Origin: a virus | Virus record (IMG/VR): IMGVR_UViG_3300045988_050620 | Coordinates: 1 to 39,387 of that record | Direction: 5' to 3' (one strand) | Length of the DNA stretch: 39,387 nucleotides | Shown here: positions 174 to 38,110 of the stretch, one piece after another | Layout: every line of letters starts with the position of its first letter | Position numbering within the stretch: position 1 is the stretch's first letter | Notes under the pieces: model-generated | The model's input: only the letters and a program-made list of their open reading frames with translations | Databases searched by the model: none | Told to the model about the DNA's origin: nothing | Program-made: the position numbers and the translations under genes

Positions 174-1181
174 TCAAAGAAGATGGTTTTCAAAATATCC
201 GTTTGCCTGATCGGAATATTTTTTTGAAAAATCCGATCTGGTACCTCGGTATACCTGATTCAGAACCGTGTTGGTTTTCCAACCTCCACGCTCCATGATG
301 TATGCTTCTGGTACACCCATTGCGTGCATGATTGTGGCTGCATAGTGACGCAGATCATGGAAACGAAAATGTGGCAATCCAAGTTTTTTTATCGTGCGTC
401 CGAAATCATGCGTAATCATATCCGGGTTAAGATTGCAGATTTTGCCGGAAACAGGAAGTTCTTTAATGACTTTATCTGGATATTCAACATAACGATCAGA
501 TGTACTATTTTTGGCAACTGATTTTAGTACCCATTTATAATTTTGATTCTTTACCATTGTTTGATGAACATGCACCGTATTTCCTTGTATGTCATCTGCA
601 TATAATCCACACACTTCTGATCTTCGTAATGTTCCAATAGATGCAAGAAGAATTGCAACGTATAGATCATAGTTTGCTGTTTTGGTATAGGAAAGCAATG
701 CTTGCAGTTCTTCGTCCTTTGGAATATAGTATTGTAAGATTTCTTTTTGGGGCATAGTAACACGAAATGATGCATCCGGTATTTGCAGGCGTATGACCGC
801 ACAGAGTAGGCTGTATGCGTTTCGAACTGTCTTTGGCGAATGTTTCCCCGCAAATTCATTTATAAAGCCAACAACTGTGTTCTGGTCAATTTCTGATACA
901 TCCATATCTTTGATTGGATCGTAATATTTTTCCATCTGCCGGTAACCGCGCAGGGTGGACGGAGAGAGCACATTTGATTTCGAGTCTATGTATTTGGTAA
1001 GTGCATCCCCGAAAGCGATTTTGTCTGGCTTGGCGCGTTCTTCGGCATAATTCAGTGCCAACCGTTCAGCCTCGCGCTTGGTTGCCGCGGTAAATGACTT
1101 GTAGTGTTTCTTCCCCTGTTCATCCTCACCAAGGAAGAGTCGTGCTCTCCAAGATCCGGATGGTAATTTCCTTGCATTCAT
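174..1181 (-). CDS. int: Tyrosine integrase (phage integrase family)
   Basis: Catalytic landmarks RRSEVCGL (Arg), HDLRH (His-x-x-Arg), GGW and VYRG (Tyr). AGGAGG RBS upstream. Adjacent to attL. Confidence 0.93.
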   Translation of the reverse strand: MNARKLPSGSWRARLFLGEDEQGKKHYKSFTAATKREAERLALNYAEERAKPDKIAFGDALTKYIDSKSNVLSPSTLRGYRQMEKYYDPIKDMDVSEIDQNTVVGFINEFAGKHSPKTVRNAYSLLCAVIRLQIPDASFRVTMPQKEILQYYIPKDEELQALLSYTKTANYDLYVAILLASIGTLRRSEVCGLYADDIQGNTVHVHQTMVKNQNYKWVLKSVAKNSTSDRYVEYPDKVIKELPVSGKICNLNPDMITHDFGRTIKKLGLPHFRFHDLRHYAATIMHAMGVPEAYIMERGGWKTNTVLNQVYRGTRSDFSKKYSDQANGYFENHLL

Positions 1182-3317: not shown

Positions 3318-3346
3318 ATAATAGCACGTTGCGTAAAATAATTCAA
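3318..3346 (-). promoter_or_regulatory. Leftward promoter for the repressor operon
   Basis: On the minus strand: TTGAAT, 17 nt spacer, TATTAT. Confidence 0.55.
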
Positions 3347-14486: not shown

Positions 14487-14765
14487 ATGAAGAATAGTGA
14501 ATTAAAAGAATATGTAAACAGTTTTCCGGATGATGCACCAGTAAGTATCGTATGTGCAAATCCAAAAAAGAGAAAGGTATACGAGCCAAAAACAGTCATA
14601 ATAATGACAGATGAAGAATTTACTTATCCGGCATTTGTAATTGAAATTAAAAATGAGAGAAATATGACGGACGAAGAAAGAGCAATGTGCGAAGAATGTG
14701 AGCGAGATGCGGATGATCTGGAAGGACAGATGCAGATCGAGGACTTCCTGGAGGTGATGCCATGA
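14487..14765 (+). CDS. Hypothetical protein with an acidic C-terminus
   Basis: RBS GGAGAA. The stop overlaps the methyltransferase start (ATGA). Confidence 0.7.
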   Translation: MKNSELKEYVNSFPDDAPVSIVCANPKKRKVYEPKTVIIMTDEEFTYPAFVIEIKNERNMTDEERAMCEECERDADDLEGQMQIEDFLEVMP

Positions 14766-16360
14766 TTAACGGAGAATTGATAGTAGACAACTTCGCCGGT
14801 GGCGGTGGAGCTTCTACCGGGATAGAACTGGCAACCGGATATAGTGTGGATATTGCGATCAACCACGATCCAGAAGCCGTCCGGATGCATAAAGTAAACC
14901 ACCCGAACACAAAGCACTACTGCGAAAACGTTTGGGCGGTCGACCCGGTAAAAGCCTGCAAGGGACATCCTGTAGCACTTGCATGGTTCTCACCGGACTG
15001 CAAGCACTTTTCAAAGGCGAAAGGCGGAAAGCCAAAGGATAAAAACATTCGTGGTCTTGCATGGGTAGCCTGCCGGTGGGCGGGACTGGTGAGACCGAGA
15101 GTGATCATGTTGGAAAACGTAGAAGAATTTAAAACATGGGGACCATTAAACAGACGGCATCATCCTATTAAGCATAAACAAGGGAAGACATTTGAGCGGT
15201 TTGTGCAGCAACTTCGGGAGCTTGGCTATGAAGTAGAGTTCCGTGAGCTGATTGCTGCGGATTACGGAGCGCCAACCATGCGGAAAAGATTTTTTATGAT
15301 CGCTAGATGTGATGGCAAACCTATTGTCTGGCCGGAACCAACACACGCCCCTGCGGATAGCGAAGCGGTAAAAGCTGGACTGTTAAAGCCATATGTTGGA
15401 GCGTACACACAGATTGATTTCAGCCGGCCATGTCCGAGCATTTTTGACACATCGGAAGAAATAAAAGAAAAGTACGGCATCCGGGCGGTTCGTCCGCTAG
15501 CAAAGAAAACAATGGATCGGATTGCAAGGGGATTAAAAAAGTTCGTCCTTGATAATCCAGAACCATTTATAATCCAGTGCAACCACGGCGGTGAGCGCAG
15601 ACCGAACGACATCCGAGAGCCGATGCCTACAATCACCGGAAAGCATGGTTACGGGATTGTGGAGCCATACATGGTACAGATCGGGCAGACCGGGTTCGCA
15701 AAGGATCGGAGTAAGGATGTAAGGGAGCCCCTTACAACGATTGTGAGCAAGAATGAACATTGCCTTATCAGCCCAACTCTGATTCAATATCATTCCGAGA
15801 CGGCGCAGGGAGAAGTCAGAGGACAGACAATTAAAGATCCGATTATGACCGTGGATGGTTCGAACCGGTACGGATTGGTTACATCGTTTTTAAGTAAATT
15901 TTATAAGAGCGGCACCGGGCAGGATATGAGAGAACCATTACATACCATTACTACATCACCGGGGCATTTTGGGGAAGTCAGAGCGTTTTTGATTAAATAC
16001 TACGGCGATGCCACAGGACAGGATATAGAGCAACCACTTGATACGGTTACGACCAAAGACAGATTCGGACTTGTGACAATCGAGGGTGCGGATTACCAGA
16101 TCGTAGATATCGGGCTGAGAATGTTAGAACCGAAAGAGTTGTACGGATGCCAGGGATTTCCGGATGATTATATAATCGACCATGATTATACAGGGAAAAA
16201 GTATCCGAGAAGCGAACAGGTGCGCAGATGTGGCAATGCGGTGTGTCCGCCAATTCCTGCCGCGCTGGTAAAAGCAAATTTACCAGAGTTGTGCGTAGCA
16301 AAGCGCACAGGAAACATGAGGATTGCGCAGGAACAGACCGGACAGCTCCGGTTTGCGTAG
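14762..16360 (+). CDS. DNA (cytosine-5) methyltransferase, orphan, with an expanded repeat-containing variable region
   Basis: Motif I DNFAGGGG, motif IV FSPDCKHFS, motif VI MLENV, motif VIII APTMRKRFF, motif IX LEPKELYGCQGFPDDY, motif X CGNAVCPP. No restriction endonuclease gene is nearby. Confidence 0.92.
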   Translation: MINGELIVDNFAGGGGASTGIELATGYSVDIAINHDPEAVRMHKVNHPNTKHYCENVWAVDPVKACKGHPVALAWFSPDCKHFSKAKGGKPKDKNIRGLAWVACRWAGLVRPRVIMLENVEEFKTWGPLNRRHHPIKHKQGKTFERFVQQLRELGYEVEFRELIAADYGAPTMRKRFFMIARCDGKPIVWPEPTHAPADSEAVKAGLLKPYVGAYTQIDFSRPCPSIFDTSEEIKEKYGIRAVRPLAKKTMDRIARGLKKFVLDNPEPFIIQCNHGGERRPNDIREPMPTITGKHGYGIVEPYMVQIGQTGFAKDRSKDVREPLTTIVSKNEHCLISPTLIQYHSETAQGEVRGQTIKDPIMTVDGSNRYGLVTSFLSKFYKSGTGQDMREPLHTITTSPGHFGEVRAFLIKYYGDATGQDIEQPLDTVTTKDRFGLVTIEGADYQIVDIGLRMLEPKELYGCQGFPDDYIIDHDYTGKKYPRSEQVRRCGNAVCPPIPAALVKANLPELCVAKRTGNMRIAQEQTGQLRFA

Positions 16361-16370
16361 GAGATTAAAT

Positions 16371-16475
16371 ATGCCGAAACCGTTAAAAGATTATACTGGC
16401 CGGTGCGGTTCGTGCAGCCACTTTTCTTTAAAAAATAAGAGCCGGACACTGCAATGCCCAGCTCATGAGTGCTAA
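16371..16475 (+). CDS. Possible 34-aa CxxC...CxxxxC peptide
   Basis: AGGAG lies 7 nt upstream of the ATG. Sequence MPKPLKDYTGRCGSCSHFSLKNKSRTLQCPAHEC. Too short to be sure. Confidence 0.4.
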   Translation: MPKPLKDYTGRCGSCSHFSLKNKSRTLQCPAHEC

Positions 16476-16541
16476 GACTCTCAACCTATTGTCATTATAG
16501 CACTCGCGCACACCGTAGTAAAGACTAATTGGAGGGCTATT

Positions 16542-17540
16542 ATGACAAAGGGAGAATTTACAAACAACTTAATATACGACATGGCTGGTTATCTGGATGC
16601 CGAGGGGACAGAGAGATTAAAGATGGCACTTGCGTATCGCATGAAAGGTTTTCATTTGGCGCCGGATGAAACATTACCGGCTACGGATGTAAGGGACAAT
16701 GAGTGGATTCTTGGACGATATCACGTTGATCTGATCGCAGTCGGCAGGAAAGAGAAAACGATTGAAATGTACCTGTACACATTAAAGAAATTCTTTAATG
16801 AAACCGGACTTCATTATGCCGTTATGACCGGACAGGACGTAATGGATTATATTGCCATAAGGCAGTATCGGGACAAGATCTCGAAGTCATACGCCGGAAA
16901 TATTCAGAAATGTTTATCCGCATTTGTCAAGTGGGCGTACCGGAAACACCATATCGACAAGGACATATACTGGGATATTGACAAGATCAAAATCCCGCAG
17001 AAGCGCAAGAAACGGCTTTCAGACTATGAGGTATCTAAGTGTAAAAATACGCTGAAAACCTTGCGCGAAAAGGCATTGTTGGAACTGATGCTTAGTGCCG
17101 GTCCTCGTGTGGGAGAGATCTGTAACTTAAAAATCGAGAATCTGGATTTTGAACGTGGCGAAATTCAGATTTACGGAGAAAAGAACAGTAAATGGCGTAC
17201 TTGCTTTATGACACCGGATTGCAGGGTTGCTTTAGAGCAGTATATAAACGACAGAGCGGAAGGTTATGTATTTTTAAATAGCCGGAATGTGGAAACGGGA
17301 AAACCATTATGCAAAGCAACAATCGAAGAAATCGCAAAAGAGATCGCAGCACGTGCCGGATGCCGGAATGTGGCTACGGTGCACGTATACCGAAAAACAT
17401 TTGCAAGCCGGGAGTATCAACGAACGAAAGATATTTTATATGTATCGCACAGACTGGGGCATGCAAACACAGCAGTCACGGAAAAATATTACATCTGTGA
17501 CGACATTTTAGCAGATCGTAAGATGGCAAACGTTGCTTAG
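16542..17540 (+). CDS. Second tyrosine recombinase (XerC/D-like, SAM-like N-terminal domain)
   Basis: GPRVGEICNL (Arg), HVYRKTFAS (His-x-x-Arg), LGHANTAVTEKYY (His...Tyr). RBS TTGGAGGG. Confidence 0.9.
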   Translation: MTKGEFTNNLIYDMAGYLDAEGTERLKMALAYRMKGFHLAPDETLPATDVRDNEWILGRYHVDLIAVGRKEKTIEMYLYTLKKFFNETGLHYAVMTGQDVMDYIAIRQYRDKISKSYAGNIQKCLSAFVKWAYRKHHIDKDIYWDIDKIKIPQKRKKRLSDYEVSKCKNTLKTLREKALLELMLSAGPRVGEICNLKIENLDFERGEIQIYGEKNSKWRTCFMTPDCRVALEQYINDRAEGYVFLNSRNVETGKPLCKATIEEIAKEIAARAGCRNVATVHVYRKTFASREYQRTKDILYVSHRLGHANTAVTEKYYICDDILADRKMANVA

Positions 17541-28608: not shown

Positions 28609-29218
28609 TGTTTTTCTCGATGATCTGCCGGAAGAGTGGCACGGGTACAAAGTGAATACAGATTTTACGATTGGCATCCAGATGCTGCAGGCGAAATATG
28701 ATCGCGCACTGACGGATTACGAGAAAAGCGATATGTTCGTGTGGCTCATGTTTGCTGATGAAGATGAGAACGGGGAAGAGTATCTGCGTGAACATCCTCA
28801 GGGCGAGGCGCTTGGCGAATGTGTAGAGTGGTTCCTCTCCGGTTGGTTTCACGACAATCCGGATCCGGACGGCGATAAGACGCGCGTGGTTGATTATGAT
28901 ATCGATCAGTGGCGCATCTATGCTGATTTCCGGCAGATCTACGGTATAGATCTTGCCACCACGGATATGCACTGGTGGATGTTCTGCGGTCTGCTTTGGA
29001 ATATGCCGTACAAGCTATCCAGTTTTTTGCAGGTGGTGTCAAAGCGGCAGGAGAAGCCGGTGAGCGGTTCGACACCGGAATATCGCAAGGCATTGGCAAA
29101 GGCACAGAAGATATATGCTCTGGATCAGCTGGAGCAGAAGAAAGAATACACAGAGGACGAGAAGAATGCCATCGATGAATATGACCGAATGATGGCAGAA
29201 ATACGCGGCAGAAAGTAG
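28601..29218 (+). CDS. Gp15-like tail assembly protein (gpT-position)
   Basis: DIDQWRIYADFRQIYGIDL...MHWWMFCGLL resembles the phage Gp15 family. ATGAATAA overlap with the upstream gene. Confidence 0.75.
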   Translation: MNNVFLDDLPEEWHGYKVNTDFTIGIQMLQAKYDRALTDYEKSDMFVWLMFADEDENGEEYLREHPQGEALGECVEWFLSGWFHDNPDPDGDKTRVVDYDIDQWRIYADFRQIYGIDLATTDMHWWMFCGLLWNMPYKLSSFLQVVSKRQEKPVSGSTPEYRKALAKAQKIYALDQLEQKKEYTEDEKNAIDEYDRMMAEIRGRK

Positions 29219-32670: not shown

Positions 32671-34919
32671 TAGGTAGCAAAAACAAGAAACTTTATTATG
32701 AAAGCTCGATTGATAAGCAACTTAATATAGAAGTAATCGGAACGAAACATGTGATTGACAACTCCATGAGAGAACAGGACACATTCACGCTGACCGAGAC
32801 TCTGAATGACGGTACGGAACTGAAATTTGGCTCATGCCTGCCGAATCAGATTTCTTTTACCGGACGCGAGGTACCAATTGCCACAAAAGGCATGAAGCTA
32901 CGTGTGACGGAAACTCTGGAAGGAAATGAGGACGATCCGTTTGAATATGGTACATATACGGTACAGTCTGATACCCCGACAGCAGACCGGACGAAGCGCC
33001 AGATTGTTGCCTATGATGCCATGTATGACATAATCAATGCTGATGTAAAAAGCTGGTATGACGGTTTATCTTTTCCAATGACTTTGAAAGCATTTCGTGA
33101 CAGCTTTTTCGCACACCTTGGAATTGAGCAGAAAGAGACAAACCTTGTAAATGATTCCATGACAATAAACAAAACGCTGGTAACTACACAGTCCGATGAT
33201 TCCAGCGTAACGGCAGAAGCTACGATAAGCGGCAAGACAATAATTGAAGCGATTTGTGAGATCAACGGGGCATTTGGAAATATCGGGAGAGACGGTAGAT
33301 TTGAGTATGTGATTTTAAGGGCGATTACATCTGCACTGTATCCGGCAGAAGATCTGTACCCGCGTGATGATCTCTTTCCTTCGGATGCGAACACCGAAAG
33401 CATGAACGGGCACTATATCACATTTGACTATGAAGCGTTCCAGAGCCAAGCAATAACACAGTTGGAGATCCGGGCAGATGATTCTACTGCCGGGGCTATT
33501 GTGGGAACATCTGGAAACAATTATGTTATTTCCGGCAACTTCCTTATAAGCGACAAGACCGGGGCTGAAATGAAGCAGATTGCGAATAATCTGCTGCCGG
33601 TAATTGCACAGGCAGAATACACACCGATTAAAAGTTGTACATGCGTTGGTAATCCGTGCCTAGAGTTGGGAGATCCGATTCGTTTCAACACTTCCAGGGA
33701 GATTGTAGAAACATACATCTTACAGCGCACCCTTACAGGAGTGCAAAGCAAACGCGATTCCATTGTTTCAGCAGGAACAGAAACCCACGCCATGAAAAAT
33801 CCAACTACACGGGAGACGGTGGAAGCATTAAAAAGACGTACCCATATTTTGGAGGAAAATGCAGACCATCTTCAATCCACGTATGAGGATTTAGAAAAAA
33901 ATACCTCTACGAGATTCGAACAGACGGATGAACTGATTGCTACAGAGGCAAAGCGTGCTACAGATGCAGAGGGCGAATTGGAGTCTTCGTTTAAAGAAGC
34001 CGCCGATTCTATCCAGATGGAAGTGAGCAGAAAGGTCGGAGAAGATGAAATCCGAAGCAAATTCGCCATGAGCCCCGAGAATGTGGATATCGAATCCGGA
34101 CAAGTAAACTTTAAGTCAAACACGCTAACCATTGATTCCACCAATTTTCAGCTTGATGAATATGGAAAAGCGACAATTGTGGATTCGCTGAATTTTAATT
34201 CAACGGCGCTTGGTGATGATATTGCAATTATCGGGCTTGACGGAAAAGGTAGACCTATGTTGCAAAACATATTCATTGACCTAGACACTGTAACGGATTC
34301 AAACTCGGAATCCTTGGCAACCGAAAGTTATGTTGACGATTCGCTGAGTGACTACGCAACCAAAAGCGAATTGCCAAGTGGGTATTTTACAGACGTAGAC
34401 TATACACTTAATGATAAATCTACAACCAAGTATTCGCCTAGACACTTTAATAAAGTGGCTGATTTTGGTTCAAGGGAAAGTATCTTGGATATCGAGGGTC
34501 TTTTGATTTCTATTCCGAGTTCCGATAAAAGGCTGAAAAATAATATACAATCATTAAGGGATATTAAAAGCGTTTATATGGCAATGCGCCCAGTTGAGTA
34601 TACATGGAAATCCGGATACATCACGCAGCACACAGGCTTACAGTTTGGTTTAATTGCGCAGGATTTAGAGAAGATTTTGCAGGATGCCGGATTGTCCGAT
34701 AGCGGACTTGTACTAAAAGAAGATGCCGAAGAGGATGAAAAAGCAATTCACGGAGATTCAAAGACATGGAAAATTGACAAGGAAAATCTCCATGCAATGC
34801 ACATACAGATGATCCAGATGCAGCAGAAAGAAATCGAACTTTTGCAGCAGAAAAACGAAGATCTGGAACGCAGATTATCAGCGCTAGAAAGGAGTGTGAA
34901 CCATGCAGAAAATTTATAG
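32667..34919 (+). CDS. Tail-associated (Tal-like) structural protein with a C-terminal S74 intramolecular chaperone domain
   Basis: 750 aa. The C-terminal SDKRLKNNIQSL...YTWK...GLIAQDLEKI...coiled coil is the auto-cleaving chaperone signature (about 34500..34919). Confidence 0.85.
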   Translation: MIGSKNKKLYYESSIDKQLNIEVIGTKHVIDNSMREQDTFTLTETLNDGTELKFGSCLPNQISFTGREVPIATKGMKLRVTETLEGNEDDPFEYGTYTVQSDTPTADRTKRQIVAYDAMYDIINADVKSWYDGLSFPMTLKAFRDSFFAHLGIEQKETNLVNDSMTINKTLVTTQSDDSSVTAEATISGKTIIEAICEINGAFGNIGRDGRFEYVILRAITSALYPAEDLYPRDDLFPSDANTESMNGHYITFDYEAFQSQAITQLEIRADDSTAGAIVGTSGNNYVISGNFLISDKTGAEMKQIANNLLPVIAQAEYTPIKSCTCVGNPCLELGDPIRFNTSREIVETYILQRTLTGVQSKRDSIVSAGTETHAMKNPTTRETVEALKRRTHILEENADHLQSTYEDLEKNTSTRFEQTDELIATEAKRATDAEGELESSFKEAADSIQMEVSRKVGEDEIRSKFAMSPENVDIESGQVNFKSNTLTIDSTNFQLDEYGKATIVDSLNFNSTALGDDIAIIGLDGKGRPMLQNIFIDLDTVTDSNSESLATESYVDDSLSDYATKSELPSGYFTDVDYTLNDKSTTKYSPRHFNKVADFGSRESILDIEGLLISIPSSDKRLKNNIQSLRDIKSVYMAMRPVEYTWKSGYITQHTGLQFGLIAQDLEKILQDAGLSDSGLVLKEDAEEDEKAIHGDSKTWKIDKENLHAMHIQMIQMQQKEIELLQQKNEDLERRLSALERSVNHAENL

Positions 34920-35634
34920 CAGGACGTATTGGGAGAACTTACCGAGTGAAAAAACCTCCATAAATGAGAAACGGCTAAACAACGCCGAAAAAGGGATTGA
35001 CGATCTGGATGATCGTATAGTTGCTATGGACGCGGCAAAAGTCGATCTTGTCAAGGCGAATAATCTTGTAGAAGAAATTACTTACGAGGAAGCAACCGGT
35101 ATATTGACCATTACTAAAATGAATGGCTCTAAAGATATAATTGATACTAAACTTGAAAAGCTGGCTGTGAATTTTAGCTATAACCCGCAGACACAGCAAC
35201 TTGTGATAACGCTAGATGATGGTACAACGCAGAATGTAGATTTATCCGCGCTAATCACGCAGTATGAGTTCTTGGATTCCGATACGATCGCATTTGCAAT
35301 CGGCAGTGACGGCAAGGTGTCCGCAATCGTGAAAGAGGGAAGTATCCAAGAAAAGCATCTGCGCCCGGATTATCTTGCAGATATTAAAGTGGAATCTGCC
35401 AAGGCTGTAGCATCTGCCAAAAGTGCAAAAGAGTCCGAAACCAACGCGGCAAAATCTGCCACAGATTCCAAAAATAGCGTAGACCGAGCGCAGGGAATCG
35501 AAAACGAGATTAACAAGAAACTCACAATGACAGAATTTGATGTGAATGAGGATGGGGAGTTGATTTACACGGACAATTCTGCTTATAACTTTGTCGTTGA
35601 CAATGACGGAAATTTAAATTGGGAGGTGGCTTAG
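34903..35634 (+). CDS. Tail fibre / baseplate-distal structural protein
   Basis: 243 aa. The N-terminal WENLPSEKTSINEKRLNNAEKGIDDLDDRI is common in Firmicutes phage fibre proteins, followed by an A/K/S-rich coiled segment. Confidence 0.7.
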   Translation: MQKIYSRTYWENLPSEKTSINEKRLNNAEKGIDDLDDRIVAMDAAKVDLVKANNLVEEITYEEATGILTITKMNGSKDIIDTKLEKLAVNFSYNPQTQQLVITLDDGTTQNVDLSALITQYEFLDSDTIAFAIGSDGKVSAIVKEGSIQEKHLRPDYLADIKVESAKAVASAKSAKESETNAAKSATDSKNSVDRAQGIENEINKKLTMTEFDVNEDGELIYTDNSAYNFVVDNDGNLNWEVA

Positions 35635-35635
35635 A

Positions 35636-36409
35636 ATGGCTATAGCAGGAAGAGTAGCAATTGTACCAAAGGGCGATTGGAGCGCAAATGCTACATATAA
35701 GAGATTGGATGCAGTGACTTATAACAATACATTGTATTTTGCGAAAAAGGAAGTTCCGGCAGGAACAGCGACGAGCAATACAGAATATTGGTCTAAGTCT
35801 ATCGTGGGTGGTGCTAGTGCGATTGCAACAACAGAGGATGCCGGAGTTGTAAAGCCGGACGGAAAGAGCATGAGCGTAGATGAGAGTGGAACGCTTAGCA
35901 TTAACTTGGATGGAACCACAATTACATTAGATGAAGCGAAAAACGTCATAAAGTTGGCAGATACCTTAAAGGATGCCATCAATGGAGCGTTTCCGGCGGC
36001 GAATGTGGCGAATAATCAGATCACCACAGTGGAAGGCTTCGCACTTGATGCGCGGCAGGCGAACCCGAATATTGATGGAACACTTGCAAAGCAGATAAGT
36101 GATTTAAACAATGATTTAAATGATCACCTATATGGTTTTCGCTGGAGAAAATTTATCAATACTTGGACATCTGCATCGCAAATTGATTCCGGTTGTGGTA
36201 TCTATAATATTGGTGAAATATCATCAGATTATTGGAGCTCTATTTGTAAAAATGAGAAATTGCAAAATGTTGGCGATTACGTACTGATTATATTCCAATG
36301 GAATGGAACAGAATCAGCCCTTCGTTTTTCCGTTGGGCTTTTAATAAGTTGTCGAATGAGTAATTTAATTTATGTAACCGTCTGGAATGGAGAATTTAAT
36401 TTAACATAG
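35636..36409 (+). CDS. Tail fibre / receptor-binding protein (currently carrying tip variant 1)
   Basis: 257 aa. The N-terminal GDWSANATYKRLDAVTYNNTLYFAKK is fibre-like. It is the last structural gene. Confidence 0.8.
   Translation: MAIAGRVAIVPKGDWSANATYKRLDAVTYNNTLYFAKKEVPAGTATSNTEYWSKSIVGGASAIATTEDAGVVKPDGKSMSVDESGTLSINLDGTTITLDEAKNVIKLADTLKDAINGAFPAANVANNQITTVEGFALDARQANPNIDGTLAKQISDLNNDLNDHLYGFRWRKFINTWTSASQIDSGCGIYNIGEISSDYWSSICKNEKLQNVGDYVLIIFQWNGTESALRFSVGLLISCRMSNLIYVTVWNGEFNLT
36106..36117 (+). repeat. Left inverted repeat AAACAATGATTT inside the fibre CDS
   Basis: The exact reverse complement is at 36712..36723. The extended match is 15/17 (36104..36120 versus 36709..36725). Confidence 0.7.
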
Positions 36410-36449
36410 AAACATCATATTATGATGAAATAATTTGCATGGACTAAAA

Positions 36450-36722
36450 TTAACTGATTTTGTGCCATGAGCTCCATCCATTGGCAAGATCCACATATCC
36501 GTTGTAAAATTTGAGGTAAATTCCATCCAAAGCTGTTGTAATAAATATAAGAAATCTCCACTTATTTTCACTTCCATATACAATAAACAATAAACCATAG
36601 TCACAATTATCAGGCAAATTTTTGGTAGTATTGTTTGTTAAATATATGCCCGGTTGATTTTGTAGATCTAAAGCATCTACTAATAGTAGATTCGTATTAA
36701 ACAAAGACTTCAAATCATTGTT
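36450..36722 (-). other. Silent alternative fibre C-terminal cassette (tip variant 2): no start codon, no RBS
   Basis: The minus-strand frame is open from the codon after TGA (36725..36723) to TAA (36452..36450). It begins N-N-D-L exactly as fibre residues 158..161 and resembles the expressed tip. Confidence 0.7.
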
Positions 36723-36723
36723 T
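36712..36723 (-). repeat. Right inverted repeat (AAACAATGATTT on the minus strand)
   Basis: See 36106..36117. Confidence 0.7.
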
Positions 36724-36728
36724 CATGG

Positions 36729-36766
36729 AAATATGGTACAAACACAGCCCGAACGGGCGTTATACT
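36729..36766 (+). promoter_or_regulatory. Late-promoter-like motif copy 4 (variant)
   Basis: AAATATGGTACAAAC, 17 nt spacer, TATACT. The spacer contains CGAACGGGCGTT. Confidence 0.5.
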
Positions 36767-36843
36767 GATGTTTAATCAAAATTATCGAACAAATATTCGA
36801 ATGAACTTATAAACCATTTTTATTAAAGAAAGGAATTAAAAAC

Positions 36844-37242
36844 ATGGATAAAATTATTTTAAAAGATCAGACCAGCTTCGAGGTTGCCGATGGTGCAAGC
36901 CTTGGAAACATCCAGATCAAAGCCGAGAACTTTGAAGCCATTAAAACGATTACGGATGCATTTACTGCGGACAACCTTGCGGAAGTGACATTTAAGCACA
37001 ATAATGAGGCATCCGGAAAGTACACAGATCTGAAGTGTGATGGGTTTACATACGCACCGAATACGGACGAGGCAGGTAAGGAAGATGGAACCTACACGGT
37101 AACTATCAGGCTGCGAACCAAAACCGAAATTGAAAAGCGCCTTGATGCGCTGGAAACAGGACAGGTAACATTGCAACAGGGACATGAGTCCAACGCTGGA
37201 GCAATCGAAGATCTGGCCGGAATGATCGGAGGTGAAGAATAA
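36844..37242 (+). CDS. Hypothetical phage protein (XkdW-position)
   Basis: 132 aa with a weak AAAGGAA SD-like element upstream. Lies after the fibre genes. Confidence 0.75.
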   Translation: MDKIILKDQTSFEVADGASLGNIQIKAENFEAIKTITDAFTADNLAEVTFKHNNEASGKYTDLKCDGFTYAPNTDEAGKEDGTYTVTIRLRTKTEIEKRLDALETGQVTLQQGHESNAGAIEDLAGMIGGEE

Positions 37243-37376
37243 TGGCATGTAGCAATCTTATTAAATTCTATGTCCGCCGGATTACGGTTGATAAAAAAAT
37301 GACGATTGATGATGTTCCAGAACGCTGGCGTGAACAGGTGCGGGCAGAAATTGAAAAGGCAGAGCAGGCAGTGTAG
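37242..37376 (+). CDS. Small XkdX/CD1375-like protein (44 aa)
   Basis: TAATG coupling with the upstream gene. MACSNLIKFYVRRITVDKKMTIDDVPERWREQVRAEI matches the ..KMT.D.VPE....V.. pattern of small tail-module proteins. Confidence 0.6.
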   Translation: MACSNLIKFYVRRITVDKKMTIDDVPERWREQVRAEIEKAEQAV

Positions 37377-37456: not shown

Positions 37457-38110
37457 ATGGAAACTTTTTTATATGTACTAGGCAATAATGAGGTTGTTTC
37501 AGAAATTTTGATTATATTTATAATGTCATTGACCCTTTTGGTGTCTGTTATTTCCACTTACAAATCAAAGCAAAAAATTGATTTGAAAACGATGAAAAAT
37601 GAAGCGGATGAGATTGATAAAGCCATTCAGAACATTAGTATATTATATAGAAATACATCCGACGGAAGAGAGAATAAGCCTAATGAAAAAAATATATTAA
37701 ACATGATGATGGATAATGTAAGTGAATTAAGAGAGTATTATGTTATAAGTAAGCAACAAGCAAGAAAATCTTTTTCAGCAGCACTTTTTATATGCTTTTT
37801 TGGAATTTTTATTTATGTGTTAGGAATAATTACATATATTATATTTGATAAGAACATATCTATTATTTCTGTAATAGGGGGAACTGTAGTAGAGGTTATT
37901 GCAGGTTTATTCTTTTGGTTATATAGAGAAGCAACTAAGCAGTTAGGAATATATCATCAAAGACTCGGGTCTACAGAGAAATATTTAACTGTTATACAAA
38001 TTATTAAAGAGATGCCAAAGGAAGAACAAGCGGAATTATTTAAAGGATTAACAAAAGCAATACTGACTGATAATAGAGAAATTATCTCTCATGAAAACGA
38101 AAAAGGATGA
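37457..38110 (+). CDS. Membrane protein: N-terminal TM, coiled linker, then a 2TM hairpin module (SLATT / TRADD-N-associated 2TM-like, putative)
   Basis: 217 aa, markedly AT-rich. The segment ELREYYVISKQQARKSFSAALFICFFGIFIYVLG...VIGGTVVEVIAGLFFWLYREATKQL shows the 2TM hairpin. It has its own promoter and terminator. Confidence 0.8.
   Translation: METFLYVLGNNEVVSEILIIFIMSLTLLVSVISTYKSKQKIDLKTMKNEADEIDKAIQNISILYRNTSDGRENKPNEKNILNMMMDNVSELREYYVISKQQARKSFSAALFICFFGIFIYVLGIITYIIFDKNISIISVIGGTVVEVIAGLFFWLYREATKQLGIYHQRLGSTEKYLTVIQIIKEMPKEEQAELFKGLTKAILTDNREIISHENEKG

Follow-up and report, generated by a model that had tools for sequence, protein, structure and literature searches.

A tail-fibre gene with two opposed C-terminal cassettes

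We analysed a viral sequence of 39,387 nt from IMG/VR (IMGVR_UViG_3300045988_050620), a gut prophage, referred to here in its entirety as the window. Near its right end lies a plus-strand gene for a 257-aa tail fibre (35636-36409). The constant part of the fibre, which we call the shaft, comprises codons 1-161 (35636-36118). It matches a PHROG tail fibre family (E 9e-6), and hundreds of fibre proteins share 95-99% identity with it and have unrelated C-termini past the same junction. The shaft ends in a 12-bp crossover core, AAACAATGATTT (36106-36117), read in the fibre frame as N158-N159-D160-L161. The reverse complement of the core lies at 36712-36723, and a search of the whole window with up to one mismatch returned these two copies only. 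The extended match covers 15 of 17 positions (36104-36120 versus 36709-36725). The left crossover site (36104-36120, plus strand) has the form TTAAAC-AATGA-TTTAA; the right site (36709-36725, minus strand) is a hybrid of two sites found elsewhere, as described below.

The 594 bp between the cores (36118-36711) make up the invertible segment. It begins with tip 1, the 96-aa C-terminal cassette that is now expressed (36119-36409 with its stop codon, plus strand). Read on the minus strand from the right core, the sequence gives a TGA, then N-N-D-L, then 86 codons open to a TAA at 36452-36450; this frame (36722-36450) contains tip 2, a silent, start-less 86-aa cassette (36450-36710 with its stop codon). 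The two tips meet tail to tail around a palindrome with 7-nt arms and a 1-nt centre (CATCATATTATGATG, 36413-36427), and the cassette carries no second gene besides them. Inverting 36118-36711 in silico keeps the frame and gives an uninterrupted 247-aa protein. The preliminary description of this DNA had reported the same repeats, codon phase, opposed frame and palindrome, and all of them were found as it had given them.

Beyond the right core, 43 nt (36724-36766) are an imported flank, equal on sequence comparison to the flank of the terminal site of a donor phage. This flank overlaps a degenerate relic of the right site ancestral to the window's own lineage (TTAAACATCAGTATAA, 36760-36775, minus strand, one mismatch to the pattern), which occupies the place of the canonical right site in relatives. 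The right boundary of the module is a conserved plus-strand gene of 132 aa (36844-37242), without a family match in Pfam and PHROG searches; all related loci examined have a 126-aa homologue behind their silent cassette. From a level of about 0.46, the G+C content falls to about 0.30 over the stretch from roughly 36100 to 36850, a feature absent from the preliminary description. Promoter and terminator scans around the cassette returned nothing above chance and the terminator scan did not call the palindrome. A search of the window for tRNA genes came back empty. A diversity-generating retroelement would combine a reverse transcriptase with template and variable repeats at the 3' end of the fibre; between 35500 and 37000, the tip region showed no long direct repeat.

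We assessed how much weight the repeat could bear. Perfect inverted repeats of at least 12 bp with arms 50-1000 bp apart number three in the window, against 2.05 expected (mean of 200 first-order Markov simulations, 86% of which contained at least one). The 12-bp inverted repeat alone is no more than chance, as had been conceded at the outset, and the comparative evidence is decisive. The motifs said to be shared by the two tips were rejected as evidence: their resemblance, claimed in the preliminary description, falls short of significance both in BLASTP (E 0.049 across 51 residues) and in hhalign (probability 0.6%, E 0.1).

The inverted segment in other contigs

The preliminary description had named the search for a related genome in the alternate orientation as a test of its reading, and such a genome was found, the human-gut metagenome contig L354. 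When reverse-complemented, it matches the flipped window sequence 36106-36766 at 661 of 661 nt, versus 259 of 661 for the native order. It encodes a 219-aa fibre in which an in-frame shaft is followed by 86 residues identical to the silent tip 2. Direct sequence comparison revealed the same flipped right junction in a second contig, L352. Both orientations of the exact segment exist, and the crossovers map to the core. Since L354 could also derive from an ancestor that bore a recombinase, it is no proof that the recombinase-less cassette flips.

Other relatives of tip 2 form the C-termini of two 247-aa fibres (P0121 and P0122; 86-88% identity), and nearly all of its homologues lie at the C-terminus of proteins 99-643 aa long. 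Together with the identical fusion in L354, this bears out the earlier proposal that the minus-strand frame is a fibre tip. Tip 1 is 100% identical at the protein level to tips carried on a different shaft in contigs L353 and L190. No contig was found in which the window's own shaft is joined to tip 2 through an NNDL-type core, and the combination of this shaft with an NNDL-type core was found nowhere else in IMG/VR or the JGI metagenomes. Exact searches with the window's left junction gave 73 chance matches in IMG/VR, none with a shaft, and none in the JGI metagenomes.

A family of related loci in gut phages

In 69 of 80 related loci, the junction recurs in inverted orientation, followed by a start-less tip, and there are six mirrored pairs of tip types. 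In one pair of contigs (L032 and L033) the same phage was recovered in both states: the flanks are 100% and 99.9% identical, a 629-bp segment is inverted, and the breakpoints fall inside a 19-bp repeat. The tips group into 41 clusters, of which 10 occur both expressed and silent. The sites share outer arms (TTAAAC...TTTAA) and fall into at least two classes by their central 5 nt, GGCAG or AATGA, and both arms of a locus switch class together. The core is 12 bp long in window-type sites and about 15 bp in canonical ones.

Megablast of 34900-37300 against GenBank phages returned nothing and tblastn with the shaft gave only matches of 31-34% coverage to unrelated fibres, so the locus has no cultured relative there. 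When representative bacterial genomes were scanned once, the sole match, a weak one, was to an Oscillospiraceae MAG. The literature searched describes tyrosine-recombinase tip shufflons in Bifidobacterium and Eggerthella prophages only, and the loci collected here apparently represent a large, so far undescribed family of such shufflons in human-gut phages.

A donor lineage with a linked recombinase

The window's two tips recur in contig L353 (624 of 626 nt), where they are located at the first two of four cores: A (plus, 479), B (minus, 1085), C (plus, 2723) and D (minus, 3325). A 330-aa Xer-like tyrosine recombinase is encoded at 1727-2719, between two invertible segments. In this donor lineage, four copies of the 12-bp core flank four tips and the recombinase, and the linkage between recombinase and sites is directly visible. 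All four donor sites have in common only the 12-bp core plus RAA, and their flanks can be told apart. Site B is CGTTTTTTCATT-core-GAAGTCTTTGTT and site D is CATATTTCCATG-core-GAATACCAATAT; the right site of the window is CATATTTCCATG-core-GAAGTCTTTGTT, combining the outer flank of D with the inner flank of B. The 58 nt at 36709-36766 equal L353 3322-3379 at 100% and are also matched in L352 and L354.

Identity between the window and the donors changes abruptly at the core, from 40-45 of 65 nt (62-69%) upstream to 391/391 and 624/626 nt (99.7-100%) downstream. The shaft relatives are homologous up to 36109 and again from 36760 onwards. Near-identical cassettes pass between phage lineages that have only 62-86% identity in the surrounding genes. 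Judged from these comparisons, the low-GC cassette (about 36110-36766) is a foreign module that was imported recently from a second phage lineage. The hybrid right site is what would be expected if recombination between direct repeats had removed the recombinase module, and we infer that the module was probably lost by such an excision; conversely, a module may insert at such a site.

Candidate recombinases

In agreement with the preliminary description, the window encodes two tyrosine recombinases and no serine invertase (tblastn with Hin and Gin, best E 0.37); the same queries found no serine invertase in the flanks of 82 related loci. The first tyrosine recombinase, rec2 (16542-17540, plus strand), is Xer-like, with Pfam Phage_integrase and SAM-like domains and conserved catalytic R-H-R-H-Y residues. 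Along its whole length it shares 31% identity with the site-linked recombinases (E 2e-42 and 3e-41), and it gives the same NCBIfam ranking as they do (XerA/XerC/XerD). Located 19 kb from the cassette with no crossover site adjoining it, rec2 is the only candidate in the window for action on the sites, in trans and not as a cognate enzyme. It recurs at 99% identity in a relative without a silent cassette (L078/L157), and only 2 of 26 rec2-bearing IMG/VR contigs were seen with the window's fibre type, one of them lacking the silent cassette. The second, at the end of the element (174-1181, minus strand), is the prophage integrase. Its match to the shufflon recombinase is partial (22%, E 0.007) and its Xer-family score weak (46.9 bits), which makes it an unlikely invertase.

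No recombinase lies beside the window's cassettes, and the window contains no homologue more than 31% identical to the site-linked enzyme. Elsewhere, a recombinase adjoins the cassettes in L353, L186/L196, L001, L183-185, L202, L208, L222 and L224. In L001, L183-185, L202, L208, L222 and L224 the recombinase stop codon is followed within about 10 nt by a site whose spacer class is that of the fibre junction, and in L186 a perfect 18-bp repeat, of the same type as the window's sites, adjoins a shufflon-type recombinase. Relatives of the shufflon recombinase occur in Clostridia phages. Phages with the window's shaft type have no recombinase within 6-10 kb of the fibre, and among the best 80 IMG/VR relatives of the shufflon recombinase none was on the listed fibre contigs, which were readable in part.

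A probable inversion switch and its alternatives

On the sequence evidence, the locus is very probably a two-cassette inversion switch for the receptor-binding tip of the fibre, and a minimal member of the Rin-type shufflons. The asymmetric 12-bp core would act in frame at the shaft/tip junction (N-N-D-L) and, inverted, ahead of the start-less tip 2. Conservative site-specific recombination between the cores would invert 36118-36711 and replace the 96-aa tip with the 86-aa tip on one 161-aa shaft. The window holds no cognate recombinase, so the switch here would depend on supply in trans. The acting enzyme may be rec2 or that of a co-resident phage, or there may be none, in which case the switch is frozen.

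In that last case, the cassette would have come in by recombination from a shufflon-bearing phage, have lost its recombinase and no longer invert, leaving tip 2 as a stored but inaccessible allele. We regard this as a serious possibility, if the lesser one: the closest homologue of the site-linked recombinase in the window is only 31% identical, the hybrid site implies that the recombinase module was lost, and the relative with a 99% identical rec2 has no silent cassette. However, neither core is damaged, and both have the sequence of the four cores in an active-looking donor shufflon. The reading frame of tip 2 is still open and matches an expressed copy at 100% identity, and thus has not decayed. 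Phages with the same shaft invert without a recombinase within 10 kb of the fibre, which indicates that action in trans is normal in this lineage. The mechanical ORF call on the minus strand (36450-36713, TTG start, 87 aa) could instead be taken for an independent small gene, but this is most improbable: the frame has neither a Shine-Dalgarno sequence nor a promoter-like site ahead of it (such sites are no more frequent in the region than chance allows), the TTG is the leucine codon of the conserved junction, and the homologues are C-terminal parts of longer proteins, with the identical sequence fused to a shaft in L354.

We give equally little credence to a fortuitous repeat beside leftover tip debris, with tips swapped only by homologous recombination at the junction. 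Although chance alone would give the window a 12-bp inverted repeat within 1 kb and the conserved end of the shaft could be a homology arm, the same segment is exactly inverted in L354 with breakpoints inside the core, and the L032/L033 inversion pair contradicts this explanation as well. Inverted junction copies in 69 of 80 loci, the joint change of both arms between GGCAG and AATGA, and the dedicated recombinase of the donor lineage with a site near its stop codon also argue against it. A serine-invertase switch of the Gin/Cin/Hin type, as in the Mu G segment, would follow the same logic of exchanging fibre C-termini by inversion. It is the reading to which we attach the least probability: neither the window nor the flanks of the 82 loci encode a serine recombinase, the repeats are 12-19 bp and not 26-34 bp, and the donor-linked enzyme is a tyrosine recombinase. 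An enzyme encoded in the window is thus contradicted, and the invertase would have to be a host-encoded one acting in trans.

Comparison with known inversion systems

The preliminary description had likened the switch to the Mu G and P1 C segments and to plasmid shufflons. The comparison with tyrosine-recombinase shufflons stands and that with the serine-invertase segments does not, there being no serine invertase. Four well-known systems, Mu G/Gin, P1 C/Cin, e14 Pin and p15B Min, depend on a serine invertase with 26-bp sites and an enhancer that requires Fis, and co-invert a fibre-assembly gene; Min has multiple crossover sites and many isomers. As in these, inversion at our locus would keep the N-terminal part of the fibre constant and exchange its C-terminal, receptor-binding part. 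In contrast to them, the window has no serine recombinase, and its 12-bp core replaces sites of about 26 bp with a 2-bp central core. The shufflon of plasmid R64 (IncI1) relies on Rci, which reportedly gives inversions only, and on 19-bp sfx repeats in pilV, the adhesin of the conjugative pilus. It shares with our locus a tyrosine recombinase, short repeats and opposed C-terminal cassettes of one surface protein. The target here is a tail fibre, the core differs in sequence and length, no recombinase adjoins it in the window, and the hybrid site indicates that direct repeats recombine too.

The closest counterpart is the Rin shufflon, known from Bifidobacterium (Bb423phi1, Bl157phi1) and Eggerthella lenta prophages, with 11-bp rix repeats and rin beside the cassettes (PMC6109161, PMC8778435). 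Both have a constant N-terminal part of a fibre or receptor-binding protein, followed at a short asymmetric repeat by start-less C-terminal cassettes. Both have an armless XerD-like tyrosine recombinase, which adjoins the cassettes in L353, L186 and L001; the likeness of the linked recombinases here to Rin is at the family level, from the assignment of the former to XerA/XerC/XerD. The window itself has the in-frame junction core and the opposed start-less cassette, and both isomers occur in nature. The family described here differs in its phages, in its low-GC setting and in its 12-bp core (versus the 11-bp rix) of another sequence. Its cassettes are paired head-to-head in invertible segments, its sites fall into two or more spacer classes with shared outer arms, the donor recombinase lies between two invertible segments and not at the end, and the window and most phages with the same shaft have no linked recombinase. 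In the tRNA-Met-integrated bifidophages 689b-1 and Bb423phi2, a segment of about 500 bp is inverted from one relative to another at an 8-bp repeat; it comprises a small gene and, opposed to it, the 3' end of another, no recombinase flanks it, and an invertase acting in trans was proposed (PMC6109161). Our locus resembles these in its very short repeat and the lack of a recombinase, but the gene functions are unknown there whereas a recognisable tail fibre is present here, with both states documented and a donor shufflon with its recombinase identified.

Implications for host range

The bacteria open to infection by a phage are determined by its tail-fibre tips, and a tip switch would be expected to alter the host range of the phage. 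A family of uncultured human-gut phages carries pre-made alternative tips, at 69 loci and of at least 41 types, which are exchanged through site-specific inversion; this extends the tip-shufflon principle to a different and much larger group than the Bifidobacterium and Eggerthella prophages. The window offers precise sites and a candidate enzyme. Annotators who meet start-less minus-strand ORFs after fibre genes, or contigs broken at the junction, should take them as indications of a switch and not dismiss them as junk.

More speculatively, and we hold this to be rather doubtful, the tip cassettes could be a shared library traded horizontally between unrelated gut-phage lineages, in which the arms are common and compatibility is encoded by the central 5 nt, GGCAG or AATGA, so that these determine which cassettes recombine with each other. 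If so, the conserved outer arms would let one recombinase family serve all cassettes, and phages without a recombinase could switch or acquire tips with that of a co-resident phage. Host range would then be a property of the prophage community and not of a single genome, and the hybrid B/D site would be direct evidence of module excision and insertion beside inversion.

Predicted structures

AlphaFold predicted tip 1 as a small beta-rich domain with pLDDT of 83-93 over most of its length; the fibre shafts were poorly modelled as monomers. Foldseek searches with these models gave weak matches only (E 4e-3 to 0.8): baseplate and fibre proteins of staphylococcal phages, and the R2 pyocin fibre.

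Inverted repeat and reading frames of the segment

The repeat AAACAATGATTT lies at 36106-36117 within the 257-aa open reading frame of the fibre gene (35636-36409), in the codon phase AAC AAT GAT TTa that encodes N158 N159 D160 L161. Its reverse complement lies at 36712-36723; allowing ≤1 mismatch, the window contains no third copy. Along the minus strand, TGA stands before the right copy, which encodes N-N-D-L and leads into 86 further open codons ending with TAA at 36452-36450. Inverting 36118-36711 in silico gave an unbroken 247-aa protein. Read from the sequence, an asymmetric 12-bp core thus stands inverted at the junction of the shaft with the expressed tip (tip 1, 96 aa) and before the silent tip (tip 2, 86 aa), as the preliminary description had it. 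Its caution that such a repeat could arise by chance was also borne out: the window contains three perfect inverted repeats of ≥12 bp whose arms are separated by 50-1000 bp, and simulations gave an expectation of 2.05. Apart from the repeat at the fibre gene, two perfect 12-bp inverted repeats with arms <1 kb apart lie at 28622/28928 and 34413/35235, a number consistent with chance.

In a library of 1.8 billion representatives, the homologues of tip 2 nearly always form the C-terminus of proteins 99-643 aa long. AlphaFold predicted small beta-rich domains; pLDDT was 83-93 for the greater part of tip 1 and 73-87 for the tip 2 type, and monomer models of the shafts were poor. The best Foldseek matches, to phage phi812 baseplate proteins, 80alpha and P68 fibres and the R2 pyocin fibre, were weak (E 4e-3 to 0.8). 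The preliminary description had relied in addition on a likeness between the two tips. Homology between them could not be demonstrated and that argument falls, though the case does not need it.

Both orientations of the segment

The preliminary description proposed to check the idea by looking for the opposite orientation in relatives, and that orientation was found. The reverse complement of L354, a 1461-nt contig from a human-gut metagenome, matches the flipped window over 36106-36766 at 661/661 nt, compared with 259/661 for the native order. Its 219-aa fibre ends in tip 2, identical over 86 aa to the window's silent tip, and tip 1 is a silent, start-less cassette adjoining the same 43-nt right flank. 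The IMG/VR contig L352 has the same flipped right junction up to its end, 55 nt into tip 1. These assemblies show that both isomers of an identical segment occur in nature. Contigs also end ≤~85 nt (12-85) past the core in seven of 36 loci of a second phage lineage (L199, L200, L201, L204, L206, L207 and L210). As circumstantial evidence, breaks at the core suggest assembly-graph forks from mixed orientations within samples.

We compared the window with 80 IMG/VR loci and two Logan contigs encoding the same shaft. Past a conserved junction, which in most cases reads D-L-N-G-S-L with GATTTAAACGGCAGTTTA as its coding sequence, their C-termini are unrelated. In 69 loci (68 relatives and the window), the junction recurs in inverted form downstream of the fibre stop. 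In nearly all 68 relatives the inverted copy is 240-630 nt from the stop and leads, on the minus strand, into a tip of 62-169 aa that is in frame but has no start; in three exceptional loci it lies 2-5 nt past the stop and the frame behind it spans just 7-8 codons. Perfect repeats in the relatives are mostly 15-21 nt long (mode 18-19), around an invariant TTAAACGGCAGTTTA. The flipped fusion predicted from the window matches real full-length proteins, P0121 (88% identity, 100% coverage over 247 aa) and P0122 (86%).

Clustering yielded 41 tip types. Ten of them occur in expressed as well as silent form, and six pairs of types are arranged as mirror images of each other. In one pair, the loci L032 and L033, the flanks agree at 100% over 716 nt and at 99.9% over 2138 nt, and the central 629 nt are 99.8% identical yet inverted, with both breakpoints within the 19-bp repeat; judged by this comparison, the two are the same phage. 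In other mirror pairs the inverted segment is 96-99.5% identical whereas the flanks are merely 74-86% identical, which argues that cassettes travel between phages as units.

Origin of the cassette and of its right site

The sites fall into two classes named after their central five nucleotides, canonical GGCAG and the window's AATGA. Both copies in the window differ from the canonical site at all five central positions, and the outer TTAAAC...TTTAA is kept despite the changed centre. The N-N-D-L junction is unique among the 234 shaft homologues listed. G+C drops from ~0.46 to ~0.30 between roughly 36100 and 36850, which sets the two tips together with the two repeats apart as a single foreign block. 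Homology to the shaft relatives ends at 36109, inside the left site, and restarts at 36760; a degenerate relic of the lineage's former right site is still present at 36760-36775.

The window's site class recurs in the second lineage, whose different, shorter shaft ends in ...IAQINNDL. Two contigs, L190 and L353, bear the window's tip 1; L353 also has tip 2, and L190 stops within it. From the core onwards they match the window at 391/391 and 624/626 nt, but just upstream at merely 40/65 and 45/65 nt, and this step coincides with the 12-bp core. By these alignments, the crossovers are limited to the core and the window's cassette is an import bearing another site class. The tip 2 type occurs behind both centres (window 36415-36714, AATGA; L001 4480-4779, GGCAG; 90% DNA identity), so tips occasionally cross between compatibility classes. 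In L190 (a 1.6-kb contig), a truncated fibre gene with tip 1 (330-1536; product P0235, 133 aa, starting within the shaft) directly follows the sporulation genes yabP and yqfD. L190 represents what is left of a prophage in a spore-forming Firmicute or, alternatively, a chimeric assembly, and gives a weak host hint.

L353 has four sites. Site A(+), at 479, follows the shaft and precedes tip 1; site B(-), at 1085, is preceded by inverted tip 2. Between site B and a tyrosine recombinase (1727-2719) lies a 149-aa gene. Site C(+), at 2723, is four bases past the recombinase stop codon and leads into tip 3, and site D(-), at 3325, is preceded by inverted tip 4 and followed by a flank and holin and amidase genes. 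All four share just AAACAATGATTT plus RAA, and thus the window's 12-bp core is a complete site and not a decayed one. Hybrid sites, on this comparison, exist: the window's right site is directly observed to combine the outer flank of D (CATATTTCCATG) with the inner side of B (GAAGTCTTTGTT). Sites B and D are directly repeated, and recombination between them would remove tips 3 and 4 together with the recombinase and the 149-aa gene, which would leave exactly the window's two-tip module without a recombinase. We infer such a history of deletion or insertion; the converse, insertion of the recombinase module, is equally compatible with the sites.

Recombinases

In the donor lineage, a tyrosine recombinase is, on the available contigs, physically linked to such sites. 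In L186/L196, a perfect inverted repeat of 18 bp (TAAACAATGATTTAAAAA) that belongs to the window's site class has its arms separated by 555 nt, and a 330-aa tyrosine recombinase lies 630 nt beyond it. In the eleven second-lineage loci whose contigs reach far enough, the recombinase found 0.6-1 kb past the invertible segment shares 68-100% identity with the L186 enzyme. Where site class could be scored (L202 and L208, AATGA; L222, L224, L001 and L183-185, GGCAG), a plus-oriented site of the fibre junction's spacer class follows the recombinase stop codon within ~10 nt. These enzymes pass or approach the NCBIfam XerA cut-off, with XerC/XerD ranking next, and consist of SAM-like core-binding and catalytic domains with no arm-binding domain. 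The closest relatives in cultured phages, "integrases" from Terrisporobacter and Clostridium phages, share 32-37% identity with them.

A larger shufflon at L001 4469-7388 (also in L183, L184, L222 and L224) comprises a fibre with one silent tip, followed by a 126-aa gene and the recombinase, which has a plus-oriented site at its stop codon, and then by another inverted tip; inversion at the outermost sites would flip the recombinase and the 126-aa gene too. L352 encodes a large serine recombinase at 1385-2858, read as ORFs of 340 and 192 aa and possibly frameshifted. A large serine recombinase seems to serve the second lineage as integrase, and the tyrosine recombinase serves the tip shufflon.

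The window has no serine recombinase anywhere and no shufflon-type recombinase gene near its fibre. Of its two tyrosine recombinases, the Xer-like rec2 (16542-17540, plus strand) is 31% identical to the shufflon enzymes over its full length (E 2e-42 and 3e-41), shares their NCBIfam ranking, retains the catalytic R-H-R-H-Y residues and is closer to them than to the GenBank phage collection (best match ~26%); the terminal integrase (174-1181, minus strand) is far more distant. Against rec2, however, no crossover site adjoins it, a relative lacking a silent cassette carries a 99% identical copy, and most phages with the window's shaft type show no close homologue of it. Phages with this shaft show inversion yet have no recombinase within 10 kb of the fibre, which argues that action in trans is the rule in this lineage. 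The rec2 gene lies directly downstream of a 532-aa C-5 cytosine methyltransferase (14762-17540 together), at the replication/packaging module boundary, and no inverted repeats hinting at a second inverton were found around it.

Proposed mechanism and known systems

The recombinase would bind the conserved outer arms TTAAAC / TTTAA and swap strands across the central bases. Strand exchange across these bases would explain why partners always have the same centre and why two classes coexist. Inverted cores would give inversion and direct cores excision or insertion, and switching would alter receptor specificity. In the window prophage the enzyme would have to be supplied in trans; otherwise the switch would be frozen. 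The locus is very probably a member of this inversion system; for switching in the present host today, we consider the chances about even.

The Mu G/Gin, P1 C/Cin and p15B Min systems, whose enzymes are serine invertases, have their logic in common with the window locus. R64/Rci shares the enzyme class but differs in its target, a pilus adhesin. Of the systems described so far, the Rin shufflon of Bifidobacterium and Eggerthella prophages comes closest, with a tyrosine invertase, 11-bp rix sites, a constant Rc part and variable Rv cassettes (PMC6109161, PMC8778435). The state of the window most resembles a simpler ~500-bp inversion at an 8-bp repeat with no flanking recombinase (PMC6109161). 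We found no description of this phage family in the literature searched. It is of interest for its size and tip diversity, for the movement of cassettes from lineage to lineage, for its two spacer classes, for the evidence of recombinase-module excision and for the many members without a linked enzyme.

Neighbouring genes

Between the fibre module and the lysis genes, window 37457-38110 encodes a 217-aa membrane protein of very low GC (0.25-0.31) with a 'TRADD-N associated 2-TM' domain (PF20712, E 4e-17). The gene is missing from the same position in relatives and resembles a moron, perhaps with a role in defence or exclusion. In typical 55-58-kb relatives (L191-L194), the genes directly after the fibre module are those of an HTH repressor/Cro-like switch, Bro/ANT, SSB and replication, with neither a lysis cassette nor an integrase within 10 kb. 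The window differs in this respect, and the tail module is therefore common to phages of differing genome organisation.
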